From: Alphaproteobacteria bacterium
Lineage (GTDB): Bacteria > Pseudomonadota > Alphaproteobacteria > GCA-016699305
Direction of reading: 5' to 3'
Assembly (NCBI GenBank): GCA_016699305.1
Contig: CP064970.1
Coordinates: 389,647 to 453,646, forward strand
Length of the DNA: 64,000 bases
Of this stretch, positions 27,892 to 30,203 are shown piece by piece (position 1 is the stretch's first letter; every line of letters begins with the position of its first letter). The position numbers were made by a program, and so were the translations under genes. Under the pieces are notes generated by a model. It saw only the letters and a list, made by a program, of their open reading frames with translations, searched no databases and was not told the DNA's origin.

Positions 27892-28338
27892 TCATGGGTT
27901 GGATAGGAAGCAGTAGTAGTCTGGATCACACACGCAGAACGCATGGCCATTCCCGCTGTAGTGAACTGTGTAACTGCAGCTTACCTTTCTATCATCATCT
28001 TTTGTTATACAACCAACTTTTTCTATTGTTCCAGACACTTTAATATCAAAGCTTATTGACTCAACAAGAGAATTTTTAGTTTTAAAAAGGAAGACACGCT
28101 TAGATAGGCCTTCTTTATTGCCATCAATAGCTATATTGCTGTCAGTCACCATGTTTTTGTTAATGTAACTTCTTAGTATATATACACTTTCGTTCGTATC
28201 ATTGTAAAATGACACATCATTATCTTTTGTTCTCATAAAAAAATAATAAAAAGATAGCACTATAAGGGCAACAAACACAGGTATAAGCATGCATGTGGTG
28301 AAACGAACCCCGCATAGTTTACATATGTACTTAGTCAT
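27892..28338 (-). CDS. low-GC membrane-anchored small protein (candidate immunity protein)
   Basis: AGGAGA RBS; N-terminal hydrophobic anchor CMLIPVFVALIVLSFYYFF; AT-rich; lies directly downstream of the SLT-head gene. Confidence 0.6.
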   Translation of the reverse strand: MTKYICKLCGVRFTTCMLIPVFVALIVLSFYYFFMRTKDNDVSFYNDTNESVYILRSYINKNMVTDSNIAIDGNKEGLSKRVFLFKTKNSLVESISFDIKVSGTIEKVGCITKDDDRKVSCSYTVHYSGNGHAFCVCDPDYYCFLSNP

Positions 28339-28361
28339 TCTAGCCTTCTCCTAGCCAACCA

Positions 28362-29519
28362 TTACGCTGCATGATGCCGTGTAAATTCTTTCACGCCACG
28401 ATACAATATTGTATGGTGTGCGTTGAGCGGCAGGTTGTCGTTGCTGCCCGCGATGGCATAATTGCTCGCGGTGGCGTTCAGGTTGATGCTGGCGATGCCG
28501 GTCTCTGCCAGAGTCTTTAACTCCGCTGCTTGGCTGACGCCGTCCTGGTTCAGATCGCGCCAGACTTTCAAATTGGCGAACTGAGCATCCGCCGCGCTGA
28601 TCTTGCCGTCTTTGTTCGAGTCCAACGTCGCCAGCGCCAGAAACCCATCCGCCTGACCCGTCTTATCCCCAAACAATTCCCCATGATCGTCAATCACCCC
28701 ATTCCCATTCACATCCCGCGCCAGCAACCCATCATCCGACTTCACCCACGCGCTCGCCTCGCGGAAACCATCCTTGTCAATATCCCAATACACCCCATTC
28801 GGACCCGTCAACTCAACGCCGTCTCCGTCAAGATCCAACACCAGAGGCGAACCTTGCTCGGAGGCTTGGTTGAATTTGGCCAGCAACTCCGCCTGCCAAC
28901 CGGGAAGCGCGACACACTGATTACCAAAAATGTTCATTACCTTGTTATAAAAAGGAATAATATCTTGACGAGAAAGTAGCGTTCCTGGGGTATCAACACC
29001 TTTAACAAAACTAGATCCTAGGCCATCATGATAGAATGCATAATAATATTCAGGGCCAAGGCCCTGGCGCTCACATTTATCTTTAATTTTATTAAAGAAT
29101 GATACCATTGTCTGAATGCTTATATAAGCATCAAACTGACCAGCCTGCCCAACTGGCGTACTCACAGACGTGTTTTCTTTCCAAGTGGTGTTGATAAACT
29201 GGCCGAGACCCGCCGCTGTTGTCGTCCCAGCTGCAGCATCCGGATTAAAACCAGATTCTTCTCTTATAATCGACAATATAAAAGCAACACCACTATTGCT
29301 CATGCCCTTTTCTTGACCGGTCTGAATGACCATGTCGATAACTTTCATCTGAACATCTGGATCTGCATCGCCAACCTTGCGGCTACGTCCGGCTAATCTT
29401 CCAGCTGTACGATCAATTGGATCATTGTAGTGACTTTCTTTTATAACTTGGTCAGCTCTATAGGATCCACCTTTTTTGCTATTTACATACAGCTGATATA
29501 ATTTACTATTGTTTGACAT
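28362..29519 (-). CDS. lytic-transglycosylase (SLT-like) head fused to the RTX Ca-binding segment; orphan head module
   Basis: GGAGGT RBS; N-terminal ~195 aa low-GC with SLT-like motifs (SIIREESGFNP...AAGLGQF); residues ~196-355 near-identical to residues ~283-437 of the RTX protein; ends with diverged copy of the conserved tail (...KEFTRHHAA*). Confidence 0.75.
   Translation of the reverse strand: MSNNSKLYQLYVNSKKGGSYRADQVIKESHYNDPIDRTAGRLAGRSRKVGDADPDVQMKVIDMVIQTGQEKGMSNSGVAFILSIIREESGFNPDAAAGTTTAAGLGQFINTTWKENTSVSTPVGQAGQFDAYISIQTMVSFFNKIKDKCERQGLGPEYYYAFYHDGLGSSFVKGVDTPGTLLSRQDIIPFYNKVMNIFGNQCVALPGWQAELLAKFNQASEQGSPLVLDLDGDGVELTGPNGVYWDIDKDGFREASAWVKSDDGLLARDVNGNGVIDDHGELFGDKTGQADGFLALATLDSNKDGKISAADAQFANLKVWRDLNQDGVSQAAELKTLAETGIASINLNATASNYAIAGSNDNLPLNAHHTILYRGVKEFTRHHAA
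28445..28883. repeat. ~440-bp segment near-identical to 25477..25915 of the RTX gene
   Basis: Shadow ORFs 25715..25966 and 28530..28979 encode near-identical peptides; protein segments FNQASEQGSPLVLDLDGDGVELTGPNGVYWDID... shared. Confidence 0.8.
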
Positions 29520-29564
29520 GATTATTACCTCCAGCTTGATTAGATAGGTTACATGGTTTCAATT

Positions 29565-30203
29565 TTACTGATTTTCCTTCGCATCTTTTAGACGCGCCCA
29601 CGGTATATTATCTAAAAAAATTGACATTCCATGTTTAATAGTTTCTTTATCCTGAACGAACATTTTTTCAAAAACATCCCAGAATTTATTTTTCTTACTT
29701 ATATAATCTCCAGATCGCGCAATTAATTTTCCTTTTATTGTATCAATAATAATATGCTCTTCGCAACTATCACAATTTCCGTAATTTGCTACAGAAACAA
29801 TGACATATTGTCCTTTTTTTATTGATTCAATACAAGAAAAAGCTAAAACATGCATATTCATAACATTTATACTATTCTTTTTATCTAGATCATAAAACCT
29901 AATATACTTCTTGTTTGCTAAATAATCTTCCTTATTTCCAATACTCATAGTTTGAGAGATACATGTTTTATATGATTCTTCTCTTGTACACACAGAGTAC
30001 AAGCTGACATCACTTCCATCAGAACACGTTGCCGAAACTGTATAAAGGGCAAAACCCGGATCAGCGCACACCCCTACAGACGCTGTAAAAACAGAGAAAA
30101 CGAGAATTATAAAGAAGAACACCACTGTTCCACAAAGGTTCTTGCACAATCTGATGCCAGTACACTCCGTGTTTATTCTAGAAGGTTTCGATGTTTTATT
30201 CAT
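29565..30203 (-). CDS. low-GC secreted Cys-rich protein (candidate immunity protein)
   Basis: Start set at MNKTSKPS (GGAGAC RBS); signal-peptide-like GTVVFFFIILVFSVFTASVGVCA; many Cys; AT-rich. Confidence 0.55.
   Translation of the reverse strand: MNKTSKPSRINTECTGIRLCKNLCGTVVFFFIILVFSVFTASVGVCADPGFALYTVSATCSDGSDVSLYSVCTREESYKTCISQTMSIGNKEDYLANKKYIRFYDLDKKNSINVMNMHVLAFSCIESIKKGQYVIVSVANYGNCDSCEEHIIIDTIKGKLIARSGDYISKKNKFWDVFEKMFVQDKETIKHGMSIFLDNIPWARLKDAKENQ

Follow-up and report, generated by a model that had tools for sequence, protein, structure and literature searches.

An exported four-cysteine protein encoded upstream of an orphan SLT toxin head is its probable immunity partner in a putative RTX cassette array

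Two low-GC genes whose products are predicted to face the periplasm flank an orphan gene for a lytic-transglycosylase (SLT) toxin head in the 64-kb stretch of DNA analysed here (the window). The original prediction was that both neighbors provide envelope immunity against this toxin, as in the Tse/Tsi pairs of type VI secretion systems (T6SSs). Which of them, if either, is the partner of the SLT head? The features central to this question are as follows.

30203..29565, minus strand: protein A gene, 212 aa from ATG; predicted exported, Cys-rich product, proposed to inhibit the SLT head as its cognate immunity protein
29519..28362, minus strand: SLT ORF, 385 aa (Pfam SLT, E=1e-6), between the protein A and protein B genes
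28878..29519, minus strand: SLT toxin head, formed by the N-terminal ~214 residues of the orphan ORF (385 aa)
28445..28877, minus strand: copy of the conserved post-head region within the orphan ORF, 433 nt with 97.9% identity to positions 25477-25909 in the main RTX gene
28338..27892, minus strand: protein B gene, 148 aa (ORF and Shine-Dalgarno (SD) sequence); N-terminal membrane anchor and Cys-containing, β-rich body

ORF calls confirm that both flanking ORFs are real, with gaps of 45 nt between the protein A and SLT genes and 23 nt between the SLT and protein B genes. GGAG lies 5 nt 5' of the protein A ATG. An alternative GTG start at 30242 would make the protein 225 aa long; public data carry the 212-aa form (P0001, IPI58_01915). 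Protein B has the SD sequence AGGAGAAGG 5 nt upstream of its start. Both genes are as AT-rich as had been claimed, with GC contents of 0.327 (GC3 0.27) for protein A and 0.353 for protein B, that is, 33-35% versus ~57% (0.57) in the RTX gene. Among 2,000 random 3,650-nt sequences matched in composition to these genes, ORFs of at least 212 codons occurred in 0% and ORFs of at least 148 codons in 1.2%.

The signal-peptide-like segment and membrane anchor that had been proposed are also recovered. Protein A contains 10 Cys; its residues 23-47 are free of charge (Kyte-Doolittle maximum over 19 residues, 2.69), the N-flank is +5/-1, and DPGF follows. Protein B contains 8 Cys; its uncharged stretch spans residues 13-35 (maximum 2.39, N-flank +3/0) and is followed by RTKDND; its AF2 model, which is of low confidence, places a transmembrane helix at 13-38. 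The positive-inside rule, applied to the N-flanks, predicts that the C-terminal bodies of both proteins are in the periplasm. These calls come from our own heuristic (hydropathy, charge, and lipobox), which was also applied to eight relatives of protein A.

The SLT head has 36 homologues at 34-57% identity. Its catalytic residue, E88 in ESGFNP, is invariant across 12 homologues, and the motifs GLGQF and YHDG are also present. A PDB sequence search with the single head gave no match; an SLT profile matched a LysM/lytic-transglycosylase chain in the PDB, and this match covers the catalytic motif. The head is thus a peptidoglycan-hydrolase domain whose catalytic motif is intact. The head and its homologues start directly at the catalytic domain, without a hydrophobic N-terminus.

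In the orphan ORF, the SLT domain is followed by 150 aa of the conserved region and then by a tail encoded by a repeated junction element. The 433-nt copy is presumably a recombination handle. The ORF has neither the nonapeptide RTX repeats nor the C-terminal secretion signal of a type I secretion system (T1SS) substrate, and therefore it encodes no working toxin in its present state. The SLT gene is a truncated, non-secretable orphan cassette, which the original prediction overlooked.

If protein A is the partner of the SLT head, the two should travel together. A word-indexed homology search with protein A returned only protein A itself; an exhaustive HMMER search produced one credible homologue, P0040, the remaining matches being repetitive WD-type proteins. 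An HMM built only from these two sequences was run on the 4,448 stop-to-stop ORFs that the window and 29 loci contain. An A-like gene lies immediately upstream of an SLT-head homologue at 7 of 10 independent loci, and, seeds apart, no A-like match was detected elsewhere among the 4,448 ORFs. The E-values are 2e-25 (L019), 1.5e-17 (L025/26), 1e-10 (L023), and 7e-7 (L024), with weaker values of 2e-5 (L002/3), 1e-4 (L027), and 0.04 (L004); L003 duplicates L002, and L026 duplicates L025. The L004 match is weak taken alone. At L020-22, an SLT homologue is present and an A-like neighbor is absent.

All members of the A family carry a signal peptide or an LAAC lipobox by our heuristic, and the SLT proteins beside them lack a Sec signal. 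This combination of signal-less SLT proteins and signal-bearing partners, adjacent in unrelated genomes, is the signature of a periplasm-acting effector-immunity pair. At three loci the pair lies beside T6SS genes: TssF/G and VgrG at L019, VgrG and PAAR at L024, and VgrG and Tox-PAAR-like at L025. Because the pair recurs in other bacteria, partly beside type VI secretion genes, protein A is very probably the immunity partner of the SLT toxin head. Thus, the part of the original prediction that concerns protein A, including the comparison with Tse/Tsi pairs, is supported.

The A family might instead provide some other periplasmic accessory to SLT enzymes (a regulator, scaffold, or target-side factor), or the pairs might be housekeeping modules for wall remodelling. 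Inhibition by protein A is proposed from sequence context, no secretion-system genes are found in the available DNA of L002, L004, L023, and L027, and at L024 the A-like unit is in frame with the VgrG ORF. However, the L024 unit retains its own 'MKKSTVFVGFLLAAGLAQSAFA' signal peptide, three of the loci are inside T6SS effector neighborhoods, and the SLT head stands where a polymorphic RTX protein has its variable toxin. Moreover, a signal peptide on the partner and none on the enzyme is unexpected for a housekeeping periplasmic enzyme. We therefore consider an accessory or housekeeping role improbable. Two further roles were rejected. An L024 VgrG-A 'fusion' that acts as a loading domain is ruled out because the A-like unit keeps its own Met-Lys-Lys signal peptide, and a cytoplasmic T6SS adaptor is ruled out because every family member has an export signal.

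Protein A, taken as an immunity protein, belongs to a family with no sequence match in Pfam, NCBIfam, or the PDB, and a metagenome scan with the protein A alignment gave no match. PADLOC reported nothing meaningful for protein A, protein B, or the 62-, 114-, and 117-aa proteins described below, and the same is true of Pfam and NCBIfam. In the family alignment (A5), the only invariant columns are four Cys and one Gly, and a 'GGNCxxCEW' loop is conserved. The protein A model is of moderate confidence (pLDDT 58.8), and Foldseek detected nothing significant in the PDB. The family is an undescribed, previously unnamed group of four-cysteine proteins that are predicted to be exported.

What, then, is the setting of this pair? 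The remaining features of the region, from the outer edge to the RTX gene, are as follows.

30877..31203, minus strand: 5'-truncated fragment of the conserved RTX region, 92% identical to 25213-25512
30779..30876, minus strand: junction element E1, which closes a 140-aa fragment of the conserved RTX region
30360..30704, minus strand: 114-aa 'MTDQPES' protein (QQR69458.1), first gene of a headless cassette
30248..30345, minus strand: junction element E2, directly upstream of the protein A gene
28362..28444, minus strand: junction element E3, a diverged copy that ends the orphan SLT ORF (alignment A2 and sequence reading)
27682..27870, minus strand: 62-codon head remnant that contains 'DAYRH', a DUF6973-like motif (BLASTP against the head of L012, E=7e-4)
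27647..27681, minus strand: HCBP_related repeat fragment 'TVADLVLQRQDSDLIVV', out of frame and joined to E4
27549..27646, minus strand: junction element E4 (repeat families D6 and D7, alignment A2, hairpin)
27121..27474, minus strand: 117-aa 'MTDQPES' protein, first gene of the cassette feeding the full-length RTX gene
21164..27070, minus strand: full-length RTX protein with its own head, followed by the conserved region and by 26 RTX and 6 HCBP_related repeats (Pfam)

Four copies of the junction element are present, each ahead of a first gene. E4 runs on into a 222-nt repeat that includes a promoter-like site (hexamers) and an SD sequence and in which the 117-aa gene starts. A metagenome scan with a 24-mer from the junction element gave no match. 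The array is bordered by the fragment at 30877..31203, its oldest cassette, which has decayed. The 114- and 117-aa proteins are paralogues (phmmer, 2e-13), and the 114-aa protein lacks a hydrophobic or transmembrane segment. These first genes are not exported, so envelope targeting is not general to first genes. The 'TVADLVLQRQDSDLIVV' fragment was identified by reading the sequence alongside the main protein's repeats. DUF6973 is matched at 1e-10 by the L012 head and only weakly by the 62-codon remnant itself (Pfam, E=0.13). The head of the full-length RTX protein contains a Gly/Ala-rich hydrophobic stretch. For the full-length gene, the ATG at 27070 shares its frame with the 26788 ORF, but a TAA at 26944..26942 lies between them.

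In relatives of the RTX protein at L007, L008, L010, L012, and L013, heads that are unrelated to one another meet a conserved region (43-56% identical) at 'SPLVLDLDGDG'; a conserved scaffold thus carries unrelated toxin domains in different genomes. In these five distinct relatives (L009 duplicates L008), the gene immediately upstream always encodes a small exported protein, lipoprotein, or membrane protein, and it is clearly low in GC at L007, L012, and L013. L007 also contains an orphan head, which is preceded by its own lipoprotein gene and followed by the partner gene of the next head. Orphan modules thus retain part of the scaffold: this orphan keeps ~80 aa of the conserved region, and the window contains the 433-nt copy and the 92% identical fragment. 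The classical polymorphic-toxin layout, in which the toxin is C-terminal and immunity is downstream, is not observed: the heads are N-terminal and the partners upstream. No T1SS ABC transporter or membrane-fusion genes were found among the large ORFs of the window, nor were T6SS genes (VgrG, PAAR, Hcp, or core); only the relatives at L019, L024, and L025 resemble T6SS cargo.

This arrangement bears directly on protein B. If proteins A and B both conferred immunity to the SLT head, for example with one soluble in the periplasm and the other anchored in the membrane, then the prediction that both face the periplasm, the low GC content that both genes share with the SLT head, and the start of protein B only 23 nt past the SLT stop codon would all be accounted for. 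However, that stop codon and the short gap come from E3, which marks a cassette boundary, and another head remnant follows the protein B gene by 21 nt. Partner genes in this RTX family precede their heads, and the head that the protein B gene directly precedes is this different, truncated one. The L007 array likewise has the partner of the next head after an orphan head. Furthermore, a B-like gene is present on either side of the SLT homologue at 0 of the 10 loci. Joint immunity is thus very unlikely, and the proposal that protein B protects against the SLT head is probably wrong. Protein B is not a divergent relative of the A family (hhalign probability 0.3%), nor is it similar to any ORF of the loci retrieved, among them the L012 gene that partners the DUF6973 head.

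Protein B could also be a non-functional ORF that arose by chance or is decaying in AT-rich foreign DNA. Its exact sequence, with four alternative starts tried, is absent from a collection of 15 billion proteins, a word-indexed search of 5.8 billion sequences detected no homologues, and no public gene call was found. Its low-confidence model and the destruction of its presumed partner toxin would fit the same explanation. Against this, ORFs of its length are rare in the composition-matched random sequences (just 1.2%). The gene also has a strong, correctly spaced SD sequence, lies on the same strand as its neighbors, and is packed tightly between them without overlap, and its product has a clean positive-inside transmembrane segment followed by the Cys-containing, β-rich body. 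A chance or decaying ORF is therefore an explanation to which we give little weight. Judged by position alone, protein B is more likely an orphan immunity or partner gene of the neighboring decayed cassette than of the SLT head; at most, it is an orphan immunity gene for a different toxin.

We consider it likely that the cassettes arrayed in the 27.1-31.2 kb region encode alternative N-terminal 'heads' for a large RTX protein, presumed to be type I-secreted, and that exported protein A blocks the SLT head and protein B belongs to a decayed cassette. Each cassette would consist of a junction element, a small first gene, a toxin head, and a piece of the conserved post-head region. Cassette 1 would comprise E1 and the 114-aa gene, its head having been lost; cassette 2, E2, protein A, and the SLT head with 433 nt of conserved region; cassette 3, E3, protein B, and the 62-codon DUF6973-like remnant; and cassette 4, E4, the 117-aa gene, and the full-length RTX gene. 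Protein A in the periplasm would bind and block the lytic-transglycosylase head, and might shield the cell's own peptidoglycan from SLT-armed relatives. Alternatively, it might guard against the cell's own toxin, should recombination through the 98%-identical handle bring the SLT head into the full-length gene. In the next cassette, with its decayed toxin, protein B would be the counterpart of protein A as first gene.

Parts of this proposed arrangement resemble known systems. T6SS peptidoglycan-hydrolase effectors are paired with immunity proteins, as in Tse1/Tsi1 and Tse3/Tsi3, and lytic-transglycosylase effectors include Acinetobacter baumannii Tae17 and T6EC3 (PMC3792639, PMC11796386, PMC11148199). 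As with protein A and the SLT head, a signal-less muralytic effector adjoins the gene of an exported partner, and the likeness extends to the SLT-head homologues with A-like partners beside VgrG, PAAR, or TssF/G. In contrast, the effector domain here is an N-terminal head type of an RTX scaffold with no T6SS genes nearby, the partner is encoded upstream, and neither Pfam, NCBIfam, nor the PDB contains a sequence that matches the A family. β-Propeller-like inhibitors of peptidoglycan hydrolases include PliI, Tsi1, and X-Tfi(XAC2610) (PMC10933484). Protein A has no sequence similarity to them; its conserved features are the four Cys and the 'GGNCxxCEW' loop. Lysozyme inhibitors of the PliI/PliG type have a conserved loop motif, SGxxY, that inserts into the active site. 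No SGxxY column is conserved in alignment A5.

The type IV secretion (T4SS) pair Smlt3024/Smlt3025 of Stenotrophomonas (X-Tfe/X-Tfi) has homologues among the N-terminal domains of RTX proteins, and the structure of its immunity protein is similar to that of FrpD, a lipoprotein that binds the Neisseria RTX protein FrpC (PMC6759196). There, too, a periplasm-acting effector domain is common to a contact-dependent secretion system and the N-terminus of a large RTX/HCBP protein, and the partner is a lipoprotein: the Smlt one has its gene upstream, and FrpD binds to the N-terminus of the RTX protein FrpC. The toxin domain (SLT here) and the fold and family of the partner differ, the other delivery system is a T6SS rather than a T4SS, and an orphan-head array with junction repeats is not described in that paper. 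Orphan toxin-immunity arrays are known from the CdiA-CT/CdiI and Rhs polymorphic toxin systems (PMC3482391), which share with this locus a conserved delivery scaffold, a variable toxin end, an adjacent cognate immunity gene, and silent orphan modules that keep a conserved stretch as a recombination handle. The present locus is their mirror image, with an N-terminal toxin, immunity first, and orphans upstream of the expressed gene, and each of its truncated pieces is capped by a distinct junction element of ~98 nt.

Tentatively, and with more doubt than confidence, the locus could represent an undescribed class of polymorphic toxin system, in which immunity-first cassettes for N-terminal heads, capped by ~98-nt hairpin junctions and drawing modules from the T6SS effector pool, lie upstream of an expressed, type I-secreted RTX gene. 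A dedicated hairpin element for each cassette would then imply insertion at a defined joint, by a circular intermediate or a site-specific step, and not plain homologous displacement.

The analysis defines an exported four-cysteine family whose members likely confer immunity to a family of lytic-transglycosylase effectors. T6SSs of several bacteria use such effectors, which here would provide an RTX protein with an exchangeable N-terminal head. After Smlt3024 and FrpC/FrpD, this would be a second example of toxin-immunity modules that move between contact-dependent systems and type I-secreted RTX scaffolds. For annotation of such loci, the partner gene is to be sought upstream of the head. The locus also raises the question of how a muralytic head secreted by a T1SS would reach the periplasm of a competitor.

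Proteins A and B, the cysteine-rich and membrane-anchored products that flank a gene with an SLT-type head (a head being the N-terminal toxin domain of a large RTX protein), are encoded in a region filled with tightly packed genes, all on the minus strand. The region also carries four copies (E1 to E4) of a ~98-nt junction element, termed E.

Features of the region (window positions)
31203..30781, minus strand, 140-aa fragment
30779-30876, minus strand, E1
30704..30360, minus strand, 114-aa ORF
30248-30345, minus strand, E2
30203..29565, minus strand, protein A, 212 aa
29519..28362, minus strand, SLT ORF, 385 aa
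~28362-28444, minus strand, E3 (diverged)
28338..27892, minus strand, protein B, 148 aa
27870..27682, minus strand, 62-aa ORF
27549-27646, minus strand, E4
27474..27121, minus strand, 117-aa ORF
26788..21164, minus strand, RTX protein, 1,874 aa, with 26 HemolysinCabind and 6 HCBP_related stretches

The original prediction described A as Cys-rich with a signal-peptide-like N-terminus, B as having an N-terminal membrane anchor, and both as AT-rich. A and B contain 10 and 8 Cys residues, and their genes, each preceded by a good Shine-Dalgarno sequence, have GC contents of 0.33 and 0.35 versus 0.57 for the RTX gene. Among 2,000 composition-matched random sequences, 1.2% contained an ORF of at least 148 codons, and none contained one of at least 212 codons. 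These features, coupled with the rarity of such ORFs by chance, confirm the description. Each protein has a single N-terminal hydrophobic segment, flanked by positive charge on its N side and by acidic residues on its C side; thus, a periplasmic C-terminal body is predicted for both. The further proposal that both are candidates for envelope immunity against the SLT head is well supported for A but not supported for B.

The SLT ORF represents an orphan cassette rather than a working toxin. Residues 1 to ~214 form a lytic transglycosylase of the SLT type (Pfam E=1e-6) whose catalytic Glu, E88 within ESGFNP, is invariant in 12 homologues; GLGQF and YHDG motifs are also present. The next 433 nt are a "handle" copied from the conserved post-head region and match positions 25477-25909, within the full-length RTX gene, at 97.9% identity. 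The ORF then ends in a short tail, with neither RTX repeats nor a C-terminal secretion signal.

Every E abuts a truncated piece at that piece's 3' end; the element caps three distinct RTX-gene truncation points and one site after the 114-aa gene. It contributes the ORF tail "..NDNTPVTQSNVASCRIVKEFTCRLAA*" common to the truncated pieces and is terminated by a conserved hairpin, CATGCCGC-TTG-GCGGCGTG. An exact 24-mer of E had no match among metagenome contigs. Each E leads into a small first gene, with a head behind it: E1 is followed by the 114-aa gene (head lost), E2 by A and the SLT head, E3 by B and the 62-aa ORF, and E4 by the 117-aa gene and the full-length RTX gene. The 117- and 114-aa proteins are paralogues that lack an export signal and belong to no known family. 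Their genes have the first 20 codons in common, inside a 222-nt repeat of 92% identity, and diverge beyond. They may encode cytoplasmic partners of the full-length RTX protein's head.

A has a single database homologue, P0040, at 28% identity (pairwise E=2e-13); it too carries a signal peptide, and six Cys positions are common to both. An HMM seeded with these two proteins alone was searched against 4,448 stop-to-stop ORFs of at least 40 aa from the window and 29 fetched loci. All non-seed matches are ORFs directly upstream of SLT-head homologues: L019 (E=2e-25), L025/26 (E=1.5e-17), L023 (E=1e-10), L024 (E=7e-7), L002/3 (E=2e-5), L027 (E=1e-4) and L004 (E=0.04). Thus, 7 of 10 distinct SLT-homologue loci carry an A-like upstream gene. 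The exceptions are L005, L028/29 and L020-22; the SLT homologues of L005 and L028/29 look like phage virion lysins.

Every A-family member has a predicted signal peptide or LAAC lipobox, and in the SLT proteins the enzyme domain stands at the very start. A nine-member alignment retains four invariant Cys, one invariant Gly and the "GGNCxxCEW" loop. No member matches Pfam, and the family profile has no match among PDB sequences. An AF2 prediction for A from an alignment of two sequences (pLDDT 58.8, pTM 0.55) places an eight-strand beta body after a TM or signal helix. PliI-Ah, Tsi1 and X-Tfi XAC2610 have a common beta-propeller-like topology and inhibit via a loop inserted in the active site (PMC10933484). 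The putative match of the modeled fold is a lead in keeping with the synteny, short of proof.

Some A-SLT pairs reside among T6SS genes: between TssF/G and VgrG in L019, just upstream of VgrG in L025 (with a Tox-PAAR-like gene further on), and between VgrG and PAAR in L024 (Massilia eburnea). In L024 (JBNZFX010000033.1, 3946-8717), no stop codon separates the A-like unit from the VgrG ORF, with which it shares its frame; the unit retains a signal peptide of its own and precedes an SLT homologue that is frameshifted in the assembly. Paralogous signal-peptide proteins of ~300-330 aa flank the pair in two T6SS loci (L019 2333-3274 and 4999-5985; L025 283-1197), and may be further immunity proteins. 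Those of L019 adjoin a Peptidase_M15_4/PG_binding effector-like gene.

A genome scan recovered 12 loci with the conserved post-head region. In five distinct loci (L007, L008 and its duplicate L009, L010, L012, L013), unrelated heads of 180-330 aa are joined at "SPLVLDLDGDG" to this region and RTX repeats. In all five, the head is directly preceded by a gene for a small protein bearing a signal peptide, lipobox or TM segments; the GC content of this gene is clearly low in L007, L012 and L013. L007 also contains an orphan head with some 80 aa of the conserved region still attached. Its own lipoprotein gene lies before it, and the gene after it encodes the multi-TM partner of the following head, the same layout as A-SLT-B. 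By this upstream-partner rule, A pairs with the SLT head and B with the 62-aa remnant. The L007 lipoprotein gene is apparently frameshifted in a T-run (7196-7235); removal of one T yields "MKKLFLCGIFICLLLAGC". In the cyanobacterium Elainella saxicola (L011 7910-12650), an Rhs/YD-repeat region that contains a hydrophobic stretch is fused N-terminally to this same RTX conserved region ("SPLVFDLDGD"), which unites two polymorphic-toxin scaffolds in one protein.

B follows E3 and ends 21 nt before the remnant head, and is thus the first gene of a decayed cassette. The 62-aa ORF has the "DAYRH" start of a DUF6973-type head and resembles the L012 head (BLASTP E=7e-4); the latter matches DUF6973 at 1e-10, and the remnant's own Pfam match is just 0.13. 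An out-of-frame HCBP_related repeat scrap lies 3' of the ORF, before E4. The exact sequence of B is not found in public protein collections, and a word-indexed search of 5.8 billion sequences produced no homologue. No fetched locus contains an ORF similar to B, and this holds for the neighbours of the ten SLT homologues and for the gene paired with the DUF6973 head of L012; B also shows no relation to the A family (hhalign probability 0.3%). Judged by position, B is best read as an orphaned immunity gene whose toxin has been lost.

In the full-length RTX gene, an ATG with a good Shine-Dalgarno sequence at 27070 opens a frame ("MSKKIKILDND..."; 26942-27070, minus strand) shared with the 1,874-aa ORF, and is separated from it by a lone TAA at 26944..26942. 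Thus, the gene may be a pseudogene or a reinitiating gene, or may carry an assembly error. Its head, which has no Pfam match, includes an extended hydrophobic stretch rich in Gly and Ala (~25950-26350, minus strand; residues ~150-260 of the 26788 ORF) that recalls glycine-zipper membrane-inserting toxins.

Known T6SS effectors include lytic transglycosylases (PMC11796386, PMC11148199), and the A-SLT pair appears to behave like a T6SS peptidoglycan-hydrolase effector-immunity pair. Some of its relatives adjoin T6SS genes, whereas the pair in the window is joined to an RTX scaffold. Its nearest precedent is Smlt3024/Smlt3025. The T4SS effector Smlt3024 shares homology with N-terminal domains of RTX and HCBP proteins. 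Its immunity protein, whose gene lies upstream, resembles FrpD, a lipoprotein that binds FrpC, itself an RTX protein (PMC6759196). The array follows the same logic as CdiA/Rhs orphan modules (PMC3482391), but is inverted: the toxin is N-terminal, immunity comes first and orphans lie upstream. A literature search of incomplete coverage, and so absence of evidence only, found no description of N-terminal RTX orphan arrays or of E.

The cassette architecture, the recurrent adjacency of A-family and SLT-head genes, the export signals, the intact catalytic motif and the 98%-identical handle are observed. We propose that the RTX protein would exit through a T1SS, genes for which were not found within the window. 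The SLT head could swap into the full-length RTX gene by recombination via the handle. A would bind and block the SLT head in the periplasm, and B would protect against the DUF6973-type head.
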